Sequence record: MZ726791.1
Direction: 5' to 3' (one strand)
Source of the DNA: Escherichia phage vB_EcoM_ASO1A
DNA length: 64,000 bases
Positions 1,052 to 38,559 of this stretch are shown piece by piece. A program made the translations under genes and the position numbers. The notes under the pieces are model-generated. The model worked only from the letters and a program-made list of their open reading frames with translations. It searched no databases and was not told where the DNA came from. Within the stretch, counting starts at the first letter, position 1, and the number at the start of each line of letters is the position of its first letter.

Positions 1052-2467
1052 ATGAGCGAATTATTTAAACATGCGCACCTTCATGCAGGTCGAACTGAAA
1101 ATGGTGCTGTAAACCATACTTCATCAATGTCTGCTCTTGTAGACTTTTACAAAGCTGCTGGTTCAAGCCGTAGCAACGTAGAAATCTTACCAGACCTGTT
1201 CTACAAAGCTTTGCGTGAGGATGTTGATGTTGCAGTTCGTATTTTGCTTCATATGCGAGATGTACGAGAAGGTATGGGTGAGCGTAAAGCCTTCAGAACT
1301 GTTTTACTTCAAGCGATTGAAGACAAAGTTTTAGAGCCTACGCAGGTTCTTCGCATTATGGATAAGATTGCAGAACTTGGTCGTTTTGATGACTTCAAAA
1401 TCTTCGTAGGTACTCGTTTCGAGACAGATGCCTTCAAACATCTAGAAGCAGCATTACTAGACCCTGCAACAGCAGGTTTGGCGGCTAAGTGGTTACCACG
1501 AGTCAAACCACGTCATAAGCAGTTTGTAAAACGTTTCTGCAAGTTTGCCAACTTGAGTGAGAAAGAGTACCGCACACTGTTGTCTGCACTATCTGATACA
1601 GTTGAGCAAAAAATCTCTGCTAATGAGTTTGGTAAGATTGACTACAGTAAGATTCCTTCACTTGCTGCTGCACGTTACCAAAAACTGTTTAACCGCAAAG
1701 ATGGAGAACGCTACAAAGCTTACATCGAGTCCTTATCAAAGGGTGAGACTAAGATTAATGCTGGTGCTGTTTACCCATACGATGTAATTAAATCTGTTAA
1801 GCATGGTAATGCAGATGTTGCTAATGAGCAGTGGAAAGCACTACCAAACTGGGTGGCAGAGGGTGAAAACATCTTGTGTATGTCTGATGTTTCAAGCTCA
1901 ATGTCTTGGGTGAATTTTGGTTCAATTACTGCTCTTGATATTGGTGTTTCACTTGCATTGTATGTAGCAGAACGTAATACAGGTTGCTTTAAGAATGAGT
2001 TGATGGTTTATTCAACAAACCCTCACTTCATCGAACTGAGTGGTGATTTACGAAACCGTCATCGTCAGGTGATGCGACACGTTGAATATGGCTCAACTAA
2101 CTTACAAGCAGCTTTTGACCGTATTCTTGAAACAGGTAAAAGAAACAACTTGACTCAGAAAGATATGCCAAGTAAGCTTATCATCTTCTCCGATATGGAG
2201 TTCAATCAGGTTGATGGAGCTAACGGTCGTACAAACTTTGAAGCAATTCGTAGTAAGTACAAAAAAGCTGGATACGAAATGCCTCAACTGGTATTCTGGT
2301 ACTTAGCAAACCGTAATGGTACTTGCGAAGTGTCTGTTAAGGATAACGGTGTAGCAATGGTATCTGGTTTTTCTCCAGCTACTTTAAAAGCTCTGCTTGG
2401 TGGTGAGAAGTTTGACCCAATCAGCGTAATGCTCAAAGCAGTAATGATTGACCGTTATATCTGGTAA
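1052..2467 (+). CDS. von Willebrand factor A (vWA) domain protein with helical N-terminal region (Ro60/DUF2828-like architecture?)
   Basis: 471 aa; MIDAS-like DVSSSM (DxSxS) motif in C-terminal half; GAGAGAAGAGAG SD before ATG. Confidence 0.75.
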   Translation: MSELFKHAHLHAGRTENGAVNHTSSMSALVDFYKAAGSSRSNVEILPDLFYKALREDVDVAVRILLHMRDVREGMGERKAFRTVLLQAIEDKVLEPTQVLRIMDKIAELGRFDDFKIFVGTRFETDAFKHLEAALLDPATAGLAAKWLPRVKPRHKQFVKRFCKFANLSEKEYRTLLSALSDTVEQKISANEFGKIDYSKIPSLAAARYQKLFNRKDGERYKAYIESLSKGETKINAGAVYPYDVIKSVKHGNADVANEQWKALPNWVAEGENILCMSDVSSSMSWVNFGSITALDIGVSLALYVAERNTGCFKNELMVYSTNPHFIELSGDLRNRHRQVMRHVEYGSTNLQAAFDRILETGKRNNLTQKDMPSKLIIFSDMEFNQVDGANGRTNFEAIRSKYKKAGYEMPQLVFWYLANRNGTCEVSVKDNGVAMVSGFSPATLKALLGGEKFDPISVMLKAVMIDRYIW

Positions 2468-2485
2468 AAAGTTTTAAAAAGGGTA

Positions 2486-2520
2486 TTGACAATGTGTTTG
2501 ATACCCTTTAATATGTTCTA
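2486..2520 (+). promoter_or_regulatory. sigma70-like promoter (TTGACA - 17 nt - TAATAT) within inverted repeat GGGTAT...ATACCC
   Basis: Read directly; upstream of tRNA array. Confidence 0.55.
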
Positions 2521-2576
2521 CATAGAAACGAAACGAGAGCTTTTCTAAGATACTGAAAAATATTTTAAAAAAGTTC

Positions 2577-2612
2577 TTGACAATCACTAAAAAATAATGT
2601 TAAAGTGGTTAC
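2577..2612 (+). promoter_or_regulatory. sigma70-like promoter (TTGACA ... TAAAGT) preceding first tRNA
   Basis: Read directly. Confidence 0.45.
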
Positions 2613-2632
2613 ATAGAGTTTGAAAAGTTTAT

Positions 2633-2709
2633 CTCTGTTTAGCTCAGCTTGGTAGAGCGTTCCGTTTGGGGCGGTAAGGCCGGAGGTTCAAGTCCTCCAA
2701 CAGAGACCA
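2633..2709 (+). tRNA. tRNA-Pro (anticodon TGG)
   Basis: Acceptor CTCTGTT/AACAGAG, D-arm GCTCAGCTTGGTAGAGC, T-arm GGAGG-TTCAAGT-CCTCC, CCA encoded. Confidence 0.7.
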
Positions 2710-2716
2710 AATTAAT

Positions 2717-2794
2717 GTTCCAGTAGACAAAATGGTAAAGTCACCACTCTTTCAAAGTGGATATCTGAGGGTTCAAATCCCTTCTGGAACGCCA
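2717..2794 (+). tRNA. tRNA-Glu (anticodon TTC)
   Basis: Acceptor GTTCCAG/CTGGAAC, anticodon stem CCACT/AGTGG loop CTTTCAA, T-arm GAGGG-TTCAAAT-CCCTT, CCA. Confidence 0.7.
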
Positions 2795-2884
2795 GTTTTG
2801 ACAGAAGACCAATTACAGCAAACTTAATCTACTCATCTGACACGAAATCGGACAAAGAAGATATTTGGTCTGGTCATTGAGAAT

Positions 2885-2961
2885 TGCGGGTATAGAGAAA
2901 GGGCGTCTCACATGTCTCATTAGCATGGTATCGGCAGGTTCGACTCCTGCACCCGCCTCCA
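2885..2961 (+). tRNA. tRNA-Met/fMet/Ile2 (anticodon CAT)
   Basis: Anticodon arm CATGT-CTCATTA-GCATG, T-arm GCAGG-TTCGACT-CCTGC, CCA; 1:72 pair mismatched. Confidence 0.6.
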
Positions 2962-3038
2962 ATTTTGCAGAAGACCGTATTCAGCAACAAAATACTTTTT
3001 GCGGATAAAAGAAAAAACACGGTCTGGCAATGTATTAA

Positions 3039-3115
3039 GGTTAGGAAGCACATAAGGTATGTGCGGTCGCCTGTTAAGCGAATGGCACAGGGTTCGAATC
3101 CCTGACTAACCGCCA
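3039..3115 (+). tRNA. tRNA-Asn (anticodon GTT)
   Basis: Acceptor GGTTAGG/ACTAACC, D-stem GCAC/GTGC, anticodon loop CTGTTAA, T-arm CAGGG-TTCGAAT-CCCTG, CCA. Confidence 0.7.
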
Positions 3116-3124
3116 AATTTAAAT

Positions 3125-3212
3125 GTGTCGTTATCCCGTAGATGGTAGCGGTGGGGACTGTAAATCCCTTGTCATTGAGACTCGGTAGGTTCGACTCCTA
3201 CACGGCACACCA
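3125..3212 (+). tRNA. tRNA-Tyr (anticodon GTA), type II with long variable arm
   Basis: Acceptor GTGTCGT/ACGGCAC, anticodon arm GGGGA-CTGTAAA-TCCCT, long variable arm, T-arm GTAGG-TTCGACT-CCTAC, CCA. Confidence 0.65.
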
Positions 3213-3217
3213 ATAAA

Positions 3218-3295
3218 GGTTATGTAGTTTAATTTGGTTAAAATACTCCCCTGTCACGGGAGATGATGAGGGTTCAAATCCCTTCGTAACCGCCA
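3218..3295 (+). tRNA. tRNA-Asp (anticodon GTC)
   Basis: Acceptor GGTTATG/CGTAACC, anticodon arm CTCCC-CTGTCAC-GGGAG, T-arm GAGGG-TTCAAAT-CCCTT, CCA. Confidence 0.65.
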
Positions 3296-3321
3296 ATTTT
3301 GAGAGGGCTATTTAGCCCCTC

Positions 3322-3354
3322 CCTTAAAGGGTTCTTACGAGTATCCTTTAAAGG
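3322..3354 (+). repeat. conserved hairpin element copy A (TTAAAGGG-TTCTTACGAG-TATCCTTTAAAGG)
   Basis: Imperfect palindrome with conserved loop; related copies near 4169, 6671 and 35415. Confidence 0.5.
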
Positions 3355-3356
3355 AG

Positions 3357-3429
3357 CAGAAGACCAAATACAGCAAGAACGTATGAAATTTCAAGCCAAT
3401 TTAATTTTGAAAATTTAAACTTGGTCTGG
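3357..3429 (+). repeat. inter-tRNA spacer unit CAGAAGACC ... GGTCTGG (copy 3 of 4)
   Basis: Same terminal motifs as units at 2802-2873, 2968-3027 and 3443-3574; ends are complementary (AGACC/GGTCT). Confidence 0.45.
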
Positions 3430-3495
3430 CTCAACAAATTTACAGAAGACCGTTTACAGCAAAACTTAAACAATCTATTTCTCCGGTAAAGAAAA

Positions 3496-3560
3496 GGCGA
3501 AGGTTCGATTCCTTCACTCGGCAGATGTCGAGTTGGTGTAATGGTAGCACTTAAGATGAT
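3496..3560 (+). ncRNA. tRNA-like fragments: T-arm hairpin (GAAGG-TTCGATT-CCTTC) + 7-bp acceptor-like hairpin (ACTCGGC/GTCGAGT) + D-arm-like GTGTAATGGTAGCAC; pseudo-tRNA or structured RNA
   Basis: Read directly; elements are in non-canonical order (3' half before 5' half), so no canonical cloverleaf. Confidence 0.3.
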
Positions 3561-3723
3561 AAACAACGGTCTGGTAATTATCTTTGTAGATAAGTTATTA
3601 AGCTTACCTGTGAGTATGCGACCACAAAGGGTGAAAGGGTAAATTCTAGATTTAAACCCAAAAAGGCACATCGCTACAGACCTTAAGCAAGTCTGGGTAG
3701 CTTATCTACAAAGATAATTTAAT

Positions 3724-3798
3724 GGAAGTGTAGCAGAATGGTGATGCGGCAGACTTTTAATCTGACAGGCGATGGGTTCGAATCCCTCCACTTCTACC
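3724..3798 (+). tRNA. tRNA-Lys (anticodon TTT)
   Basis: Acceptor GGAAGTG/CACTTCT, anticodon stem CAGA/TCTG loop CTTTTAA, T-loop TTCGAAT, CCA; T-stem has two weak pairs. Confidence 0.55.
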
Positions 3799-3804
3799 AA
3801 AAAT

Positions 3805-3881
3805 GGTTCAGTCGCAGATAAGGTAATGCAAGGGTTTCATAAGCCCTATGAATGTGGGTTCGATTCCCACCTGAACCTCCA
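3805..3881 (+). tRNA. tRNA-Met/Ile2/fMet (anticodon CAT), second CAT tRNA
   Basis: Acceptor GGTTCAG/CTGAACC, anticodon arm AGGGT-TTCATAA-GCCCT, T-arm GTGGG-TTCGATT-CCCAC, CCA. Confidence 0.65.
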
Positions 3882-3882
3882 A

Positions 3883-3958
3883 GCTGGTATAGTTAAGAAG
3901 GTTATAACACTCCCCTGATAAGGGAACATCGGTGGTTCGATTCCACCTACCAGTACCA
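3883..3958 (+). tRNA. tRNA-Ile (anticodon GAT)
   Basis: Acceptor GCTGGTA/TACCAGT, D-stem GTTA/TAAC, anticodon loop CTGATAA, T-arm GGTGG-TTCGATT-CCACC, CCA. Confidence 0.7.
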
Positions 3959-3973
3959 ATTTCAATAAAGTTG

Positions 3974-4002
3974 TTGACATTGAGATGTGACTACTTTATA
4001 GT
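3974..4002 (+). promoter_or_regulatory. strong sigma70-like promoter (TTGACA - 17 nt - TATAGT) inside tRNA array
   Basis: Read directly; followed by ~200 nt without tRNA or ORF. Confidence 0.6.
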
Positions 4003-4168
4003 AACCTTAGTTTTCGTTGCGTAGCGTCTATTTTGCAAATTTAAAATAAATGCAAACGACAATGTTTTTCTGGCAGTAGCTTGATAGGCTAAACACCAGT
4101 GAGGTCTTCCAATCCCTCATCAAAGAATTTGGCGTACTCGCCCACGGTATGATTAATAAGGTGGGCAT

Positions 4169-4199
4169 CTTTAAGGGCTTTCTAAGAGAGTCTTTAAAG
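4169..4199 (+). repeat. conserved hairpin element copy B (CTTTAAGGGCTTTCTAAGAGAGTCTTTAAAG)
   Basis: Shares AGGG-YTTTCTAAGAGAGTC core and palindromic TTAAAG flanks with copies A and C. Confidence 0.5.
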
Positions 4200-4206
4200 A
4201 TAATTA

Positions 4207-4288
4207 CGGGGCGTATCTCAGCGGTCTTCTAAACCGCCGTTAACCGAGTAAGTGGAGTATGCGGGTTCGAGTCCTGCCGCCTCGACCA
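4207..4288 (+). tRNA. atypical tRNA-like gene, anticodon TCT (Arg) with no canonical D-arm and an extended variable region
   Basis: Acceptor CGGGGCG/CGCCTCG, anticodon arm GCGGT-CTTCTAA-ACCGC, T-arm GCGGG-TTCGAGT-CCTGC, CCA; only 7 nt between acceptor and anticodon stem. Confidence 0.4.
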
Positions 4289-4431
4289 ATTTAGTTAGCA
4301 GATTACTTAGACGACCTAAGCGGGTCTTCCTGTAAGGAGGTGGTCTGTATCTCATGTTTTCCAGAACATGTAAATAATCTGAGAAGGGGCTTTACAGTGT
4401 TGCGAAAATACGGTAAGCTTCGAATTACAGT

Positions 4432-4514
4432 ATGGGACGATGTTAAGACTCTAAGGCATGAGCAACGGCCTCCAAAACCGTTTCAAAGGGGTTCAACTCC
4501 TCCGTCCCATGCCA
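4432..4514 (+). tRNA. tRNA-Trp (anticodon CCA), enlarged D region
   Basis: Acceptor ATGGGAC/GTCCCAT, anticodon stem ACGG/CCGT loop CTCCAAA, T-loop TTCAACT, CCA. Confidence 0.5.
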
Positions 4515-4527
4515 AAGTCTTATTAGG

Positions 4528-4615
4528 GGTAGGTAGCGGCTAATGGTAGCCAAACTGTATTGAAAACAGTTGCCACTGTAGAGATACGGTGAGGGTTCGA
4601 CTCCTTTACTTACCG
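4528..4615 (+). tRNA. tRNA-Ser (anticodon TGA), type II, 3' CCA not encoded
   Basis: Acceptor GGTAGGT/ACTTACC, 3-bp D-stem, anticodon arm ACTGT-ATTGAAA-ACAGT, long variable arm, T-loop TTCGACT. Confidence 0.55.
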
Positions 4616-4769
4616 CCTAATAAGATTTACACCGTCCATGCTTGCTCGCATTTTCGGTTTATCCCTCGTGTATTGTCGTACACTGATAAAGCACCTAGTA
4701 GGTGTCACGGAGAAGAGATAATATCAAGCTCTCCAAAGGTTCTAGTCACCGGATTAAACAAGACTATGC

Positions 4770-4795
4770 AAAGACCTATTTAGGTCTTTTTAGAG
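4770..4795 (+). terminator. rho-independent terminator-like hairpin (AGACCTA/TAGGTCT + T-run)
   Basis: Perfect 7-bp stem followed by TTTTT; ends a ~150 nt non-coding stretch after tRNA-Ser. Confidence 0.5.
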
Positions 4796-4871
4796 GGCTT
4801 CTAAGGTTATTAGTCGCTTGTTGTGGAACCTTGTTGCTCAGGTTCTTAGAAGTTCTCTAAAAAGATTTAAT

Positions 4872-4950
4872 GGGAGATTGACGGCAACTTGGTAGACCTA
4901 TCTCGCTTAGAACGAGATGCTTGAGGGTTCGAATCCCTTGTCTCCTACCA
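4872..4950 (+). tRNA. tRNA with Leu anticodon TAG, Leu-like D-arm but short variable arm
   Basis: Acceptor GGGAGAT/GTCTCCT, anticodon arm TCTCG-CTTAGAA-CGAGA, T-arm GAGGG-TTCGAAT-CCCTT, CCA; D-loop CAACTTGGTAGA. Confidence 0.5.
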
Positions 4951-4957
4951 AATTAAT

Positions 4958-5033
4958 GCAGGTGTAGCAAAATGGTTATGCGGCTGACTCTTAATCAGTA
5001 AGACGATGGGTTCAATTCCCTCCACCTGTACCA
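4958..5033 (+). tRNA. tRNA-Lys (anticodon CTT)
   Basis: Acceptor GCAGGTG/CACCTGT, anticodon stem GCTGA/TCAGT loop CTCTTAA, T-loop TTCAATT, CCA; paralogous to Lys(TTT). Confidence 0.6.
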
Positions 5034-5039
5034 GACATT

Positions 5040-5115
5040 GGGGATGTAGTTTACATGGTTAAAACATAAGTTTTGCAAACTTAAGTACAGGGTTCAATTC
5101 CATGCTTCTCCACCA
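5040..5115 (+). tRNA. tRNA-Ala (anticodon TGC)
   Basis: D-stem GTTT/AAAC, anticodon arm TAAGT-TTTGCAA-ACTTA, T-loop TTCAATT, CCA. Confidence 0.6.
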
Positions 5116-5121
5116 ATTAGT

Positions 5122-5196
5122 GCATCCATAGTTTAAACGGGAAAATTACAGTCTTCCAAACTGAGGTTGAGGGTTCGATTCCCTCTGGATGCTCCA
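5122..5196 (+). tRNA. tRNA-Gly (anticodon TCC)
   Basis: Acceptor GCATCCA/TGGATGC, anticodon stem CAGT/ACTG loop CTTCCAA, T-arm GAGGG-TTCGATT-CCCTC, CCA. Confidence 0.65.
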
Positions 5197-5203
5197 AATT
5201 AAT

Positions 5204-5279
5204 GCTCCTATCGTATAATTGGCTATTACGGTTGCCTTGTAAGCAACTTATCAGGGTTCGAATCCTTGTGGGAGCACCA
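5204..5279 (+). tRNA. tRNA-Thr (anticodon TGT)
   Basis: Acceptor GCTCCTA/TGGGAGC, anticodon arm GTTGC-CTTGTAA-GCAAC, T-arm CAGGG-TTCGAAT-CCTTG, CCA. Confidence 0.7.
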
Positions 5280-5282
5280 ATT

Positions 5283-5372
5283 CAGAGGTCAAGTGAAAGA
5301 CCGCTGGTGTCAACTGAAGACCGTAACAAATTCCACGGAGTTGAGTTAGCGGCACAACTTCAGACCTCTTTC
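5283..5372 (+). ncRNA. candidate structured spacer RNA (long-range stem CAGAGGTC ... GACCTCTG enclosing internal hairpins)
   Basis: Complementary 8-mers ~80 nt apart between tRNA-Thr and tRNA-Val; no ORF, no tRNA fold. Confidence 0.25.
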
Positions 5373-5374
5373 AT

Positions 5375-5449
5375 GCTCGCTTAGTTTATATGGTAAAACA
5401 TCACCCTTACAAGATGAAGAAAAAGGTTCAAGTCCTTTAGTGAGTACCA
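5375..5449 (+). tRNA. tRNA-Val (anticodon TAC)
   Basis: Acceptor GCTCGCT/AGTGAGT, D-stem GTTT/AAAC, anticodon loop CTTACAA, T-arm AAAGG-TTCAAGT-CCTTT, CCA. Confidence 0.65.
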
Positions 5450-5450
5450 T

Positions 5451-5528
5451 GTTCCAGTATCCCAATTGGCAGAGGATGCAAGCTCAAACCTTGTATTAGT
5501 GACGGTTCGAATCCGTCTTGGAACACCA
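5451..5528 (+). tRNA. tRNA with Leu anticodon CAA, short variable arm
   Basis: Acceptor GTTCCAG/TTGGAAC, D-loop CAATTGGCAGA, anticodon stem GCAAG/CTTGT loop CTCAAAC, T-arm GACGG-TTCGAAT-CCGTC, CCA. Confidence 0.5.
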
Positions 5529-5533
5529 ATTTT

Positions 5534-5609
5534 GCAGGATTAGTTCAAATGGATAGAGCAACAGTCTACGAAGCTGTTAATAGGGGTTCGAATCCCTTAT
5601 CCTGCGCCA
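5534..5609 (+). tRNA. tRNA-Arg (anticodon ACG)
   Basis: Acceptor GCAGGAT/ATCCTGC, D-arm GTTC-AAATGGATA-GAGC, anticodon arm ACAGT-CTACGAA-GCTGT, T-arm AGGGG-TTCGAAT-CCCTT, CCA. Confidence 0.7.
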
Positions 5610-5626
5610 GATAAAAAGGTGATACT

Positions 5627-5869
5627 ATGCAAACATTAACAGTAGTTGAACATGAAAACTGTGAGAATATTGAGTTTGTCAGGGTCATTGGTGTTGAACA
5701 CCACATTTTCTTAAAAGTAGGGTACTTATGTGACCCCGCTAGAGTAGAAAGATTTATACGTGATTGTTTTGGTGGTAGACAGCTAAAGAGTGTTATTTTT
5801 GAGACAGTTTTACCAGAAGGTTTAGAAACGAATAATAACATTTATCTCCTTACAAGGATTAGACGATGA
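5627..5869 (+). CDS. hypothetical small protein embedded in tRNA array
   Basis: 80 aa ORF; AAGGTGA SD 7 nt upstream of ATG; directly follows tRNA-Arg. Confidence 0.4.
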   Translation: MQTLTVVEHENCENIEFVRVIGVEHHIFLKVGYLCDPARVERFIRDCFGGRQLKSVIFETVLPEGLETNNNIYLLTRIRR

Positions 5870-6423
5870 GATATTTAAAATATGCTTCATGGATTTTCCT
5901 AGCTTTGCTAGAACCATTAGCAGCAACCTTAGCAGTTATCTTAGCACCTTTCGTAGTTCCATTTTACAGTGAGAAGAAAGGCCACTTACCTTTCGGATTT
6001 AGATGGATGGAGACATATGACAACCCAATTGATGGTGACGAAGGTCATATCGAACGATGGGCTAAGATTAGAAAGATTGGTAAGCTGGGTGTCTACATGC
6101 AGAGAGTCGGATGGCTCTGGAGAAACAAAGCTTATAACTTCTCTTACCATGTATTAGGAAGAGATGTAAAAGATGTTACTAAGTGGAAAGGTAATATCAA
6201 CGTAAGTTCTGACCCTGAAGATAATCAGACAGGTTATCTCCTAATGTGGAACAGTAATGCTTGGGGATTATTCGCTTTTATCCCATCAATTAAAGTCTTT
6301 GGTAAACAATTTTACTGGAGAATTTATATTGGGTGGAAGCTAAAAAGTGTTGTCCCAGAAGAAAGAGCATTCTCAAGGGAAAGAGTTATGTTGGCATTCT
6401 TTATTCATCCACTAAGAAAGTAA
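5866..6423 (+). CDS. hypothetical membrane protein (N-terminal hydrophobic segment, Trp-rich)
   Basis: 185 aa; ATG with AAGGA SD; start overlaps upstream ORF stop (ATGA). Confidence 0.55.
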   Translation: MRYLKYASWIFLALLEPLAATLAVILAPFVVPFYSEKKGHLPFGFRWMETYDNPIDGDEGHIERWAKIRKIGKLGVYMQRVGWLWRNKAYNFSYHVLGRDVKDVTKWKGNINVSSDPEDNQTGYLLMWNSNAWGLFAFIPSIKVFGKQFYWRIYIGWKLKSVVPEERAFSRERVMLAFFIHPLRK

Positions 6424-6431
6424 AGATTTAA

Positions 6432-6507
6432 AGGGGATTAGTTTACAAGGTTAAAACCTCGGTCTTTGAAATCGAAGAAGTTGGTTCAATTCCAACATCC
6501 CCCGCCA
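6432..6507 (+). tRNA. tRNA-Gln (anticodon TTG)
   Basis: D-stem GTTT/AAAC, anticodon arm TCGGT-CTTTGAA-ATCGA, T-arm GTTGG-TTCAATT-CCAAC, CCA; 1:72 mismatch. Confidence 0.6.
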
Positions 6508-6509
6508 AT

Positions 6510-6588
6510 GCTCCATTACTCCAATTGGCAGAGAGGCCAGACTTAAAATCTGTGTTATGTATCGGTTCGAATCCGATATGGAGTACCA
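6510..6588 (+). tRNA. tRNA with Leu anticodon TAA, short variable arm
   Basis: Acceptor GCTCCAT/ATGGAGT, D-loop AATTGGCAGA, anticodon stem CAGA/TCTG loop CTTAAAA, T-arm ATCGG-TTCGAAT-CCGAT, CCA. Confidence 0.5.
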
Positions 6589-6593
6589 AATTT

Positions 6594-6669
6594 AGCGGTA
6601 TAGCATAACTGGCAATGCAACAGTCTCTGAAGCTGTCCTATTAAGGTTCAAATCCTTATGCCGCTGCCA
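6594..6669 (+). tRNA. tRNA-Gln (anticodon CTG)
   Basis: Acceptor AGCGGTA/TGCCGCT, anticodon arm ACAGT-CTCTGAA-GCTGT, T-arm TAAGG-TTCAAAT-CCTTA, CCA. Confidence 0.65.
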
Positions 6670-6670
6670 C

Positions 6671-6701
6671 TTCTAAGGGTTCTTACGAGAGTCCTTAAAT
6701 G
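6671..6701 (+). repeat. conserved hairpin element copy C (TTCTAAGGGTTCTTACGAGAGTCCTTAAATG)
   Basis: Near-identical loop (GGGTTCTTACGAG) to copy A. Confidence 0.5.
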
Positions 6702-6776
6702 TGGCCTTATCATAAATGGTAATGACCCATGCTGTGAACATGGTCTATACGGGTTCAAATCCCGTAGGTCACCCCA
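6701..6776 (+). tRNA. tRNA-His (anticodon GTG)
   Basis: Acceptor GTGGCCT/AGGTCAC, D-stem TCAT/ATGA, anticodon arm CCATG-CTGTGAA-CATGG, T-arm ACGGG-TTCAAAT-CCCGT, CCA; no encoded G-1. Confidence 0.7.
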
Positions 6777-6781
6777 ATTTA

Positions 6782-6858
6782 TAGTCCAAGTAGCTTATAT
6801 GGTTAAAGCGCGTGTCTGAAAAACATGAGAAGAGGGTTCAAATCCCACTGGACTACCA
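6782..6858 (+). tRNA. tRNA-Phe (anticodon GAA), 3' CCA not fully encoded
   Basis: Acceptor TAGTCCA/TGGACTA, D-stem GCTT/AAGC, anticodon arm CGTGT-CTGAAAA-ACATG, T-loop TTCAAAT; odd 8-9 spacing. Confidence 0.55.
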
Positions 6859-6874
6859 ATTTCAAAGGTGCTTA

Positions 6875-7609
6875 ATGAAAGAGATGACAGAACAAGGTAA
6901 GGAGATTTTTAATCTCTTAAAAACCGGTAAAGGGTTTTCTAACCCACTTATTACTGGTGCAGCAGTTCTCGGTGGAACCGTAGCTGCCTCTACATCACTT
7001 GTAAGCTCTATTAGTTCTGTAACAGACCCTACAATGCAGGAGAAACTTGTTGCTGCTGGACTTACAACAGTCCTTCTAAACAGCTTTACAACAAGCCTTA
7101 CAAGCACTACAGCAACTACTAAGACCCTGACAGACTACGGTCAAAAGTCTATTGATGAGTTTTCATCACGTATGCAGGTAGCAAAGGGATATTCCAATGT
7201 TATGAGTGCAGCAGGAGAACAAGTTGGTTGTACACCGTTCAGTGGTATTATGGGTGTTGCTACAGAATATGGTCAAAAAGCTATTGATACAATTAACAGT
7301 ACACTAGAGAGTGTTAACGATGTATTAAGTGACTTACAAGACGCTATTGATGAGGGTCTTGATACTATTTCTGATTTAGCTAATCAGGCTGTTAGTAAGA
7401 TTAATGAAGGTATTTCAAAGATTACAGCTTATGCAGATGAAGTTGTGCAGATGATTGAAGAAGAAGCTGCCCTTATTGCAGAGTACCTTAAAACGAATAT
7501 CAATGGGTTCTTAGCAGGTATCTTACCAGACTGGTTTGACGATGCCTGTAAAACTGGTGTAATTGACACTATTGCAACACCAGAAATGAAGAACGCATTA
7601 CAGAAATAA
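6875..7609 (+). CDS. hypothetical protein (Ala/Ser/Thr-rich N-terminal half, acidic helical C-terminal half)
   Basis: Track ORF 6812-7609 trimmed to in-frame ATG (Met22) with AAAGGTG SD, because the first 45 nt overlap tRNA-Phe. Confidence 0.55.
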   Translation: MKEMTEQGKEIFNLLKTGKGFSNPLITGAAVLGGTVAASTSLVSSISSVTDPTMQEKLVAAGLTTVLLNSFTTSLTSTTATTKTLTDYGQKSIDEFSSRMQVAKGYSNVMSAAGEQVGCTPFSGIMGVATEYGQKAIDTINSTLESVNDVLSDLQDAIDEGLDTISDLANQAVSKINEGISKITAYADEVVQMIEEEAALIAEYLKTNINGFLAGILPDWFDDACKTGVIDTIATPEMKNALQK

Positions 7610-7611
7610 AT

Positions 7612-7704
7612 GGAAGATTAACCCTAAAAGGTAAGGGAGCAGTTTGCTAAACTGCCAGTAGCTGAGAAATCGGTGTACCAGTTCAAGTCTGGTATCTTCC
7701 TCCA
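7612..7704 (+). tRNA. tRNA-Ser (anticodon GCT), type II
   Basis: Acceptor GGAAGAT/ATCTTCC, anticodon arm GCAGT-TTGCTAA-ACTGC, long variable arm, T-arm ACCAG-TTCAAGT-CTGGT, CCA. Confidence 0.7.
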
Positions 7705-7708
7705 ATTT

Positions 7709-7784
7709 GAATCCGTGACAGAAATGGCTATGTGCCTGTCTGCAAAACAGGTTTATAAGGGTTCGAGTCCCTTCGGATTCTCCA
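7709..7784 (+). tRNA. tRNA-Cys (anticodon GCA)
   Basis: Acceptor GAATCCG/CGGATTC, anticodon arm CCTGT-CTGCAAA-ACAGG, T-arm AAGGG-TTCGAGT-CCCTT, CCA. Confidence 0.7.
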
Positions 7785-7821
7785 AGTTATTTTACTCTCT
7801 CTCAATTAAAATAATAATAAT

Positions 7822-7881
7822 GCCCTGCTATAAGTATTCTTCCTTTCGCTACCGAAGAGTATTTTTAGACAGGGCTTTTTT
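7822..7881 (+). terminator. rho-independent terminator ending the tRNA array (GCCCTG ... CAGGGC + T6)
   Basis: Long hairpin followed by TTTTTT immediately after last tRNA. Confidence 0.6.
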
Positions 7882-7946
7882 ACAGAGTTATACTTTATAA
7901 GAAGGCTTATACAGTATGTCTCTGACGTACATTGTGGTTTCTCCTT

Positions 7947-7970
7947 GACGGTCTCTGTGCCGTCTTTTTT
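7947..7970 (+). terminator. second terminator hairpin (GACGG ... CCGTC + T6)
   Basis: Read directly. Confidence 0.5.
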
Positions 7971-8006
7971 AAGGAGAAACATGGTTAATTATTTGGAGAA
8001 AACATA

Positions 8007-8207
8007 ATGAGTGAGACCGTTTATAAAGAACTTTATGAAGCTAACAAAAAGCTAGAATTTATGCAGAATACTATCATGGCAATTGCAGACAGATTGTCTG
8101 TAGCAACAGGTATTGATATTAAAGAAGCATCTATGGATGCACTTCTTGATGCTGTTGATGCAAAGTTCGAAGTTAAGAAAGAAGAGACTGCTACAGACTC
8201 TGAATAA
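8007..8207 (+). CDS. hypothetical small acidic protein (terminase small subunit not excluded)
   Basis: 66 aa, GGAGAAAAC SD; first gene of morphogenesis operon, just upstream of terminase large subunit. Confidence 0.5.
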   Translation: MSETVYKELYEANKKLEFMQNTIMAIADRLSVATGIDIKEASMDALLDAVDAKFEVKKEETATDSE

Positions 8208-18782: not shown

Positions 18783-18812
18783 GGGGAGACTTTAAAAGGT
18801 CTTCCCCTTTTT
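18783..18812 (+). terminator. rho-independent terminator (GGGGAGAC ... GTCTTCCCC + T-run)
   Basis: Read directly. Confidence 0.6.
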
Positions 18813-18841
18813 TGTTTCTTTTAAAGTATTAAGGAATCACA

Positions 18842-35240: not shown

Positions 35241-35414
35241 AAACACCTCAAAGTTATATTAAATTTTGTATGACGTTGAGTATAAAAATAAGCTATAACA
35301 CCTGAACTGTCAACAGATTTTATAGCTTATTTGGCAGATTTTTTATAAGGCTACTGCCATCCTTCCATACCAAACCATACAAGACATAGCCATACCCGAC
35401 CTCACCCTACCGGA

Positions 35415-35453
35415 CATCACTTAAAAACCCTCTTAGAAGACTCTTAAGTGATG
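35415..35453. repeat. conserved hairpin element copy E (10-bp inverted repeat CATCACTTAA/TTAAGTGATG enclosing CCCTCTTAGAAGACTC)
   Basis: Core related to the hairpin family in the tRNA array; sits in a 420-nt intergenic region. Confidence 0.4.
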
Positions 35454-35477: not shown

Positions 35478-35510
35478 CTGCTCAGTATACTCACCAAATT
35501 TTCTATGTCA
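35478..35510 (-). promoter_or_regulatory. sigma70-like promoter on minus strand (TTGACA - 16 nt - TATACT)
   Basis: Reverse complement read directly; drives downstream minus-strand genes. Confidence 0.5.
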
Positions 35511-35518
35511 ACAACTTT

Positions 35519-35665
35519 TTATAAAAAAGTTCTGATAGCTATATGTGTCACGAAACAAAAGATTGTAAACAAGACACCCATTGCAAAAGATGTGTCCAAA
35601 AGCTTACTTGCAACGTATGACAATACAAAGACAACCAGTATAAACAGAATGACTGTACTGAACAT
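35519..35665 (-). CDS. small two-helix membrane peptide (about 48 aa, not in ORF track)
   Basis: Minus-strand ATG just after ligase stop; translation strongly hydrophobic. Confidence 0.3.
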   Translation of the reverse strand: MFSTVILFILVVFVLSYVASKLLDTSFAMGVLFTIFCFVTHIAIRTFL

Positions 35666-35668
35666 AGT

Positions 35669-38043: not shown

Positions 38044-38559
38044 TCAACTTAGTTTTGCAAACTCTCCGTGGAGTTTAATAGCAGCTTCACAGTAAGCTTT
38101 ATGGGCTTCTTCTTCTGTTGTGTACGTCCCTATATGTATAGTCTTACCATTATGGTTAATCTGGGCTATCCACTTACCAGACTTGCTTCTACTTGTACCT
38201 TTTAAGTTTTTTGATGTTCTGGGTTGTCTCCTATTAGACATGTTCTGCTCTTTTGTGGCCTCTCTTAGATTGTCCCAAGCGTTATTCAAACCATCCCCAT
38301 CTTTGTGGTCAATGTGTTTATCAGGCCACTTACCTGTCATCCAGAACCAAGCAATTCGGTGATTACCTGTCCTGTATCCTAAAATCTGTGTGTGCATATA
38401 CACACCAGACCTTGTGCGCTTAATTGCTCCGGCTTGGCTTCCAATGACCACCCTACTACTATGTGGAGGTCTGCCAATCCATGTTAAGACCCCTGTTTCG
38501 GGGTCATAATCTAACCAAGACTTTAACTGTTCATGTGTGAATCCACAATCTCTCATCAA
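38044..38559 (-). CDS. HNH homing endonuclease with AP2-like DNA-binding domain
   Basis: HIDHKDGDGLNNAWDNLR (HNH) and YDPETGVLTW N-terminal motif shared with two paralogs; abuts the DNA polymerase gene. Confidence 0.75.
   Translation of the reverse strand: MMRDCGFTHEQLKSWLDYDPETGVLTWIGRPPHSSRVVIGSQAGAIKRTRSGVYMHTQILGYRTGNHRIAWFWMTGKWPDKHIDHKDGDGLNNAWDNLREATKEQNMSNRRQPRTSKNLKGTSRSKSGKWIAQINHNGKTIHIGTYTTEEEAHKAYCEAAIKLHGEFAKLS

Follow-up and report, generated by a model that had tools for sequence, protein, structure and literature searches.

A family of G·U-rich hairpins in the tRNA array and at a further intergenic locus of a Felix O1-type phage, with a possible role as cis-acting RNA elements and recombination linkers

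A family of five related hairpins, rich in A/U and G·U pairs, is present in the 64,000-nucleotide stretch of Escherichia phage vB_EcoM_ASO1A (MZ726791.1) analysed here as a whole (the window), a Felixounavirus of the Felix O1 type. Four of them, designated c1, c2, c3 and c4, are found on the plus strand in the tRNA array, the fifth one—c5—on the minus strand between minus-strand genes. The segment that the preliminary description of this DNA, made by a model from the letters alone, had taken for an almost invariant loop belongs in fact to the stem, where it is paired via G·U wobbles, and the apical loops obtained by folding consist of just 3–4 nt, UACG or UAA. Substitutions in relatives mostly keep the pairs, the copies lie on the transcribed strand, on which some of them also fold better, the family is shared by four genera, and breakpoints of alignments coincide with hairpins. 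We infer RNA to be the functional form of the hairpins, and selection on the RNA fold is considered highly probable. The reading preferred here—cis-acting RNA hairpins that serve processing or stability by punctuating untranslated transcripts of the early and tRNA regions, and that act in addition as recombination linkers—is put forward more tentatively, as a nearly balanced possibility.

Members of the hairpin family

The hairpin c1 (positions 3319–3356), located between tRNA-Asp and a bulged-stem module called here Y-like, reads CTCC-C-TTAAAGGGT-T-CT, loop UACG, AG-T-ATCCTTTAA-A-GGAG, and folds into a 13-bp stem with one U·U mismatch plus four outer pairs. The arms of c2 (4167–4201), ATCTTTAAGGGCTTTC and GAGAGTCTTTAAAGAT, form around a UAA loop a continuous stem of 16 bp, three of them G·U. 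The stem of c3 (6670–6701, core 6674–6697; arms TAAGGGTTCT and AGAGTCCTTA) has 10 bp below a UACG loop, and 14 bp in one relative; this hairpin occupies the entire spacer between tRNA-Gln(CTG) and tRNA-His. In c4 (4784–4866), positions 4784–4806 pair with 4843–4866 to give a 22-bp stem, including four G·U pairs, that closes an interior of 36 nt (folding energy −37.6 kcal/mol, z −5.8). Finally, c5 (35415–35453, minus strand), referred to as A-type, has the arms CATCACTTAAGAGTCTTC and GAGGGTTTTTAAGTGATG, a UAA loop and about 18–19 bp with five G·U pairs. The stem lengths across the family are 10–22 bp, and three of the four array copies—c2, c3 and c4—end 3–7 nt ahead of the next tRNA, the distance from c4 to tRNA-Leu(TAG) being 5 nt.

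The three main copies named in the preliminary description (c1, c2 and c3) lie where it had placed them and share the long core. Its weaker copy near 4787–4815 does indicate a family hairpin, that segment being, however, only the 5′ arm of the 22-bp stem formed with 4843–4866, and the related copy at 35415–35453 turned out to be a family member on the minus strand, i.e. the strand transcribed there. A covariance model trained on the variants of c1 and c3 scores c1 at 55.3 bits, c3 at 53.7 bits, c2 at 17.1 bits and c5 (minus strand) at 12.9 bits; over the whole window and 23.9 kb of the related genome MZ726792.1 it gives no other credible match, the next ones being an ordinary terminator and weak palindromes. 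A degenerate core pattern was found twice against 0.02 occurrences expected in shuffles. Three candidates for further copies were rejected: the model match at 18790–18826 represents the ordinary terminator, and those found with the pattern, at 38260 and 43640, fall within coding sequence.

It should be pointed out that each copy comes directly after a hairpin that is shorter and richer in GC, and that the T-rich 5′ arm of the family hairpin occupies the position expected for the U-tract of this preceding hairpin. By folding, such a hairpin (GAGAGGGCTATTTAGCCCCTC, plus strand 3301–3321) stands directly 5′ of c1; the same order recurs at c2, c4 and c5 and in the arrays of relatives, and ahead of c4 there is a terminator-like one (plus strand 4771–4788; AAGACCTA-TT-TAGGTCTT), whose subsequent T-run is the 5′ arm of c4.

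Evidence for folding at the RNA level

The stem substitutions were tallied on the distinct variants from approximately 90 related loci. Nineteen events keep pairing, 2 create a pair and 6 break one, the cells of the variant alignment being G·U 79 times versus A·C 8 times. The changes comprise a compensatory replacement of G:C by A:U in c1, with G:U and A·C intermediates; C:G to U:G, G:U to G:C and G:C to G:U in c2; and G:U to A:U and U:G to U:A in c3, accompanied there by changes extending the stem. Among the 154 cells given by the 22 pairs of c4 in 7 variants, just one is broken, and U:A is replaced by G:C in one double change; a long allele of c2 (62 nt) bears three compensatory double changes in the related locus L025. 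In one relative, the UACG loop has become UGCG, which is still of the UNCG type. Concerning the family alignment as a whole, 88% of the cells are paired versus 81% in shuffles and the covariation score is 0.349 versus 0.206, none of 500 shuffles being as high in either case; these values are inflated by the relatedness of the paralogues and orthologues and by the alignment fitted to the model, although their direction is consistent. When the alignment registers are slid, only 32–66% of the cells are paired.

A strand bias goes in the same direction. The folding energy of c2 is −17.6 kcal/mol on the plus strand versus −6.3 kcal/mol on the minus strand, that of c5 −20.8 kcal/mol on the minus strand versus −15.6 kcal/mol on the plus strand, and the A-type and B-type copies in relatives exhibit the same bias. 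All five copies of the window, as well as all array copies in relatives, share the strand of the genes or tRNAs next to them. The proposal of conserved hairpins at the RNA level, made in the preliminary description, is in agreement with these results; the conservation of the loop, which it had offered as the reason for recognition by a protein or an RNase, falls away, that loop being a stem.

Distribution in Ounavirinae and beyond

The tRNA region of the window (2600–7800) is 100% identical to that of Escherichia phage vB_EcoM_ASO1B (MZ726792.1, Felixounavirus) and is matched by 408 phage records. Outside this region the identity to MZ726792.1 in BLAST drops to about 96%, with indels, so that the window represents a close relative of MZ726792.1 and not the same genome.

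The hairpins are neither absent from related phages nor randomly placed in them: the family occurs in four genera of Ounavirinae—Felixounavirus, Suspvirus, Mooglevirus and Kolesnikvirus—in each case within untranslated spacers and on the transcribed strand. The first three genera have the hairpins at the same positions of the array. Erwinia phage Tian, a Kolesnikvirus, has one copy as the closing hairpin of the homologous leader; the core of this copy, GGTTCTTACGAGAGTC, is identical to that of c3, the stretch just 5′ of the core being mostly only partly conserved between the two genera.

The pattern of c2 and c5 was found in 13 loci of IMG/VR, the scans of which yielded no real family member outside Ounavirinae; core matches in other contigs fall into apparent coding sequence, seem fortuitous and were not accepted. 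The family was not found in five distant phage loci encoding a Ro60-like protein either. Among bacteria, six look-alike hairpins were retrieved; one Thioglobus genome accounts for three, which stand behind a tRNA gene and have T6 after the stem. Near-identical hairpins (AAGGATTCTTACGAGAATCCTT) with T6 after a tRNA gene occur in this genome and in a Patescibacteria contig. The bacterial hairpins were rejected as family members and regarded as ordinary terminators converged on the same stem. With Rfam 15, the tRNA array gives only tRNA matches plus sub-threshold noise over the c2 leader (16–29 bits with tmRNA models, threshold 47), and neither the c5 locus nor the arrays of relatives give any match. 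The hairpins are undescribed in the literature searched, the Felix O1 genome paper making no mention of them.

Proposed role and alternative explanations

Based on the above results, the hairpins may be seen as one family acting in cis in tRNA precursors and in an early non-coding leader, where they would mark boundaries of processing or stability and set the site and order of cuts in long untranslated transcripts. The longer members could be sites of double-strand-specific cleavage, host RNase III being the first candidate; alternatively, the hairpins could block 3′-exonucleases or delay RNase P and RNase E. In E. coli, hairpins next to tRNAs are reported to affect processing by RNase P (PMC2241853). 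Since the same 30–40 nt sequence recurs in many spacers, it would serve also as a patch of homology for the exchange of cassettes and alleles between phages, as the promoter-early stem-loops (PeSL) do in T4-type phages.

Several points weigh against this interpretation. There is no hairpin before the tRNA-His of Kolesnikvirus, and c3 is therefore not generally required for this tRNA. Both c1 and c3 fold about equally on the two strands, so that the argument from the strand rests on c2, c4 and c5 together with the array copies. Stems of 10–16 bp are shorter than the roughly 22 bp of double-stranded RNA accommodated by RNase III (PMC6212723); because only c4 (22 bp) reaches this substrate size, c5 (about 19 bp) coming close, RNase III is considered an unlikely identity of the enzyme, and the nuclease or protein involved is, in general, a matter of guessing. 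The shuffle statistics suffer from the inflation mentioned above, and the G·U bias could partly arise from transcription-linked C-to-T and A-to-G mutation of the non-template strand. Furthermore, the literature searched contains no transcript-end, cleavage-site or binding data for any Ounavirinae phage.

The most serious alternative assigns the function to DNA, with the hairpins as recombination linkers—homology patches moving open reading frames (ORFs), tRNA alleles and repeat modules between co-infecting phages, as PeSLs do—and the RNA fold being incidental. Indeed, the c2 site has two alleles, a 33-nt and a 62-nt hairpin, the downstream tRNA-Arg has two alleles as well, all four combinations of them exist, and alignments break off at 4167 or 4204, i.e. 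at the edges of c2. Two BLAST pieces of MZ726792.1 overlap exactly on c5 (window 35414–35453), where that phage possesses two A-type hairpins flanking a 1.56-kb cassette of two ORFs and the window a single hairpin, a topology known from indels mediated by PeSL (PMC2839356); in addition, relatives carry 1–3 copies of the locus per genome, seen at 372 places in 230 records. Paralogy kept uniform through recombination can likewise account for the likeness of the copies, given that mosaic and indel breakpoints coincide with the hairpins. Homology patches need no pairing, yet the substitutions keep it via G·U, which is meaningless in duplex DNA; moreover, the position of c3 is fixed in all loci seen of Felixounavirus, Suspvirus and Mooglevirus without a nearby indel, and the core is retained across genera in the homologous leader. 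An action solely on DNA is possible, but not likely. The same preservation of pairs in four genera contradicts a chance resemblance among functionless AT-rich palindromes, such as could be expected from an AT-rich genome with its common TTTAAA and CTTAAG; with 2 matches against 0.02 in shuffles and model scores of 54–55 bits, its probability is negligible.

The remaining two alternatives concern what the hairpins do at transcription or as targets. Classical rho-independent terminators, defined by a GC-rich stem of 5 bp or more with a U-rich run beginning 0–2 nt behind it, are rejected for the tRNA array, a scan of 2400–8100 reporting none of c1–c4; in agreement with the preliminary description, no copy is followed by a T-run, the 3′ flanks of c1–c4 reading, by eye, GGAGCAG, ATAATTAC, AAATGTGG and ATTTAATG. 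Weak, leaky intrinsic terminators or pause hairpins, tuning transcription into the downstream tRNAs or genes, would fit the geometry of a U/A tract, an upper stem and then U2–5 A2–4, the annotation of the A-type copy of MZ726792.1 (59328–59372) as rho-independent by both TransTermHP and WebGeSTer, the Thioglobus and Patescibacteria hairpins with T6 and the effective termination by PeSL stem-loops (PMC2839356). Such a role is regarded as improbable in view of U-tracts of 2–3 nt at c1, c2 and c3, none of which passes a simple terminator scan, and of lower stems that would sequester the U-tract, are conserved and even extended in some relatives (c3 variant CTTCTAAGG...CCTTAGAAG); strong termination would also be costly, the tRNAs after c3 and c4, past the promoter at 3974–4002, having only weak promoter matches (9–10/12). 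Sequence-specific binding of a phage or host protein, either an RNA-binding one, e.g. the Ro60-like protein, or a dimeric DNA-binding regulator reading the imperfect palindrome, is given little credence. The upper stem is unusually constant among paralogues and across genera, c5 and c2 are located downstream of strong promoters, and a gene for a Ro60-like protein (1052–2467), the Bas63 homologue of which is Ro60-like in structure (PMC11482910), lies just upstream of the array. Kolesnikvirus, however, keeps the core hairpin with no Ro60-like gene annotated beside the array in the loci examined, c1, c3 and c4 are far from any promoter, and the half-sites differ exactly at the G·U pairs, which fits RNA better than a DNA operator.

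The hairpins are of interest for several reasons. The tRNA arrays of phages are studied as tools of counter-defence, the cutting and stabilising of their precursors being known only for T4, and hairpins at fixed points of the array are concrete sites to mutate. The same hairpin marks points of cassette swapping in Felix O1-type phages, widely used in typing and therapy. Lastly, the family leads to the hairpin and pentamer-repeat locus described below and adjoins the Ro60-like and Y-like RNA modules.

Two further likenesses of the hairpins did not withstand inspection. The UACGAGAG of c3, an 8-mer of the sarcin-ricin loop of 23S rRNA, was noticed post hoc; a mimic of that loop was rejected, the register lacking a GAGA loop on a paired stem and c1 and c2 not keeping the 8-mer. 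Similarly, CUUCUAA and UACGA resemble anticodon loops of tRNA-Arg, but an anticodon-arm mimic was rejected, the heptamers lying off the centre of the hairpins.

The c5 locus and its pentamer tract

The c5 hairpin is preceded by a promoter of the sigma-70 type (35484–35511, minus strand; TTGACA-16-TATACT), conserved in all relatives compared, whose −10 element ends about 30 nt upstream of the hairpin. Directly 3′ of c5, on the transcribed minus strand (about 35357–35415), there is a G/T-rich tract with a period of 5 nt, (GGTNN)n. Its lag-5 identity of 0.54 versus 0.31±0.06 in shuffles makes it the strongest lag-5 segment in the window; G accounts for 38–45% and C for 3–10%, and the length is about 60 nt in the window and 77–105 nt in MZ726792.1. 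Each of 13 related contigs has a tract of its own, whereas the 95 nt ahead of it are nearly identical in the 11 copies located behind the promoter.

At the c5 locus of MZ726792.1 and of other relatives there is an array that combines A-type hairpins, pentamer tracts and a small conserved double hairpin with B-type hairpins (CCTTTTTAAAAGGTCTTTAAGAGGGTCTTTTAATGAGG) and two ORFs without assigned function; such arrays extend up to about 1.8 kb (L039 4150–6020, minus strand; reverse complement of L094, 6267–8260). Their tracts would correspond to a G/U-rich and C-poor RNA. For the pentamer tract itself, the formation of R-loops or a G-quadruplex, a sponge for an RNA-binding protein and the avoidance of Rho come to mind as ideas. 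It is doubtful, albeit conceivable, that the locus as a whole is an undescribed non-coding one of phages, in which a strong early promoter yields an RNA of conserved G·U hairpins alternating with variable (GGUNN)10–20 tracts. Such an RNA could form R-loops or two-tetrad G-quadruplexes priming replication, could sequester a host RNA-binding protein reading the 5-nt register, or could hide long untranslated RNA from Rho; the copies in the tRNA array would then be the same module reused.

Several other assignments were considered for this locus and rejected. In the tract after c5, AAGAGG, resembling a Shine–Dalgarno sequence, stands ahead of an AUG and suggested a coding function, but other phages do not keep the short frames. 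What the c2 and c5 loci have in common is the promoter alone, without any extended homology. The GC skew simply follows the direction of transcription and does not indicate a replication origin at c5, and the ‘warpig’ repeat_region, taken for a possible genome end, is a pentamer tract at an assembly break. A CRISPR array, which would have identical direct repeats, unique spacers of similar length and usually cas genes, does not fit the several types of repeat (A, B, C and others) and the low-complexity (GGTNN)n between them, and no cas genes are annotated.

Upstream of the c5 promoter, approximately 148 nt (35520–35667, minus strand) have no counterpart in MZ726792.1; they hold a hydrophobic ORF of 49 codons (MFSTVILFILVVFVLSYVASKLL...) between the DNA ligase gene and the promoter.

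The c2 leader and the surroundings of the hairpins in the tRNA array

The array comprises 25 tRNAs recognized by ARAGORN, all on the plus strand between 2633 and 7784. A scan of the tRNA region reports promoter-like sites at 2486–2514, 2577–2606 and 3974–4002 and a terminator at 7947–7964. The third site, on the plus strand within the array (TTGACA-17-TATAGT, 11 of 12 consensus positions), is of the sigma-70 type, is annotated as a promoter in MZ726792.1 and drives a conserved, untranslated and structured leader of about 200 nt (4008–4207, plus strand), the 3′-terminal stem of which is c2, with the next tRNA 4–6 nt on. The RNAalifold structure of the leader from Felixounavirus, Mooglevirus and Kolesnikvirus comprises 56 pairs, and compensatory double changes are seen in 7. 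The part upstream of c2 (4008–4166, plus strand), shared with Kolesnikvirus, exhibits covarying stems (CTGGCAGTAGC...CTAAACACCAG, TGAGG...CCTCA and GCCCAC...GTGGGC) and may constitute a separate non-coding RNA.

Two tRNA-like genes on the plus strand downstream of c2 were missed by ARAGORN. The one at 4207–4285, with a TCT anticodon loop, reaches 31.7 bits against the Rfam tRNA model, and at this site relatives have a canonical tRNA-Arg(TCT) allele; the other, at 4434–4508, has a CCA anticodon loop and only 23 bits versus the tRNA-Sec model. In the spacer between them (4290–4430, plus strand; 5134–5262 in the relative L040), TAAGGAGGTGGTCTGTATCTC is conserved between Felixounavirus and Kolesnikvirus and is followed by a small covarying hairpin, ACATGTT...AACATGT versus CCTGAC..TCAGG; a 7-codon ORF of the window in this spacer is not conserved. 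In the relatives L006, L009 and L024, an ORF (ATGGCACGTAGC...) starts 11 nt into the tRNA-Leu(TAG) gene, and two HNH endonuclease genes are annotated at other places of the array in FO1a (L005 1665–2150 and 2638–3030); the tRNA array appears to be an insertion site for genes of this kind.

Next to c1, the array contains a second family of repeats, the above-mentioned Y-like modules, with the bulged stem NNNN-AGA-AGACCNN...NNGGTCT-G-NNNN. There are four of them on the plus strand (2797–2878, 2963–3032, 3352–3434 and 3438–3579), just downstream of the Ro60-like gene, whose product has the domains DUF2828 and DUF7788. Their outer 3–4 bp covary (GAC/GTC, TTGC/GCAA, GAGC/GCTC and TTAC/GTAA), and the fourth module encloses a permuted tRNA-like piece. 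Four modules are seen in the loci of Felixounavirus, Mooglevirus and Suspvirus and none in those of Kolesnikvirus, in which the annotation shows no Ro60-like gene next to the array; Rfam gives no match. The modules are candidates for Y-RNA-like partners of the Ro60-like protein, RNAs of this type having been speculated to exist in Bas63 (PMC11482910). Between the fourth module and tRNA-Lys (3580–3723, plus strand), about 100 nt of non-coding sequence are enclosed by the 15-bp arms of a perfect inverted repeat (ATCTTTGTAGATAAG/CTTATCTACAAAGAT), which looks like another structured RNA.

Comparison with known RNA elements and recombination cassettes

Hairpins processed by RNase III between the cistrons of polycistronic RNAs are a classical feature of phages T7 and T3, and an RNase III step has been reported for the tRNA cluster of T4. 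Like them, the present hairpins are conserved RNA structures without U-runs between units of long phage transcripts and may separate or stabilise the products; the classical sites, however, extend over some two helical turns and frequently contain an internal loop, whereas here only c4 reaches approximately 22 bp. Repeated, transcribed intergenic hairpins are represented also by those with stable UNCG-type tetraloops in intercistronic regions of T4 and by the bacterial palindromes of the REP type, both thought to protect RNA from 3′-exonucleases. The family shares with the former the UACG loop of c1 and c3 (UGCG in one relative) and the repeated, transcribed and intergenic occurrence; it differs in the closing pair, which is U:A instead of C:G, and in the UAA loops of c2 and c5, and it has no sequence relation to the REP elements. 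With rho-independent terminators, in turn, it has in common a hairpin flanked by A- and U-rich tracts, the same cores with T6 after a tRNA gene being found in two unrelated bacteria, but the phage copies lack the U-run and lie inside units that need read-through.

As far as recombination is concerned, the closest parallel is offered by the PeSL cassettes of T4-type phages (Arbiol et al. 2010, PMC2839356; Comeau et al. 2014, PMC4122927). Both a PeSL and the c5 locus are short composite intergenic repeats consisting of a sigma-70 promoter and a stem-loop, both flank non-essential ORFs, and in both cases relatives have either one element or two of them and a cassette, the crossover lying within the element; variable ORFs flanked by repeats, with the indel crossover in the repeat, are precisely what is seen at c5. 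The two belong, however, to different phage families and share no sequence similarity. The stems of PeSL are GC-rich (GGGG...CCCC) and are effective terminators (PMC2839356), whereas those described here are rich in A/U and G·U and lack a U-run. A promoter within about 100 bp, typical of PeSL, is present at c5 (about 30 nt) and in a looser sense at c2, where it ends about 165 nt upstream; c1, c3 and c4, i.e. three of the five copies, have no adjacent promoter and are placed between tRNAs. The exchange of cassettes at these hairpins extends the idea of PeSL beyond the T4-type phages.

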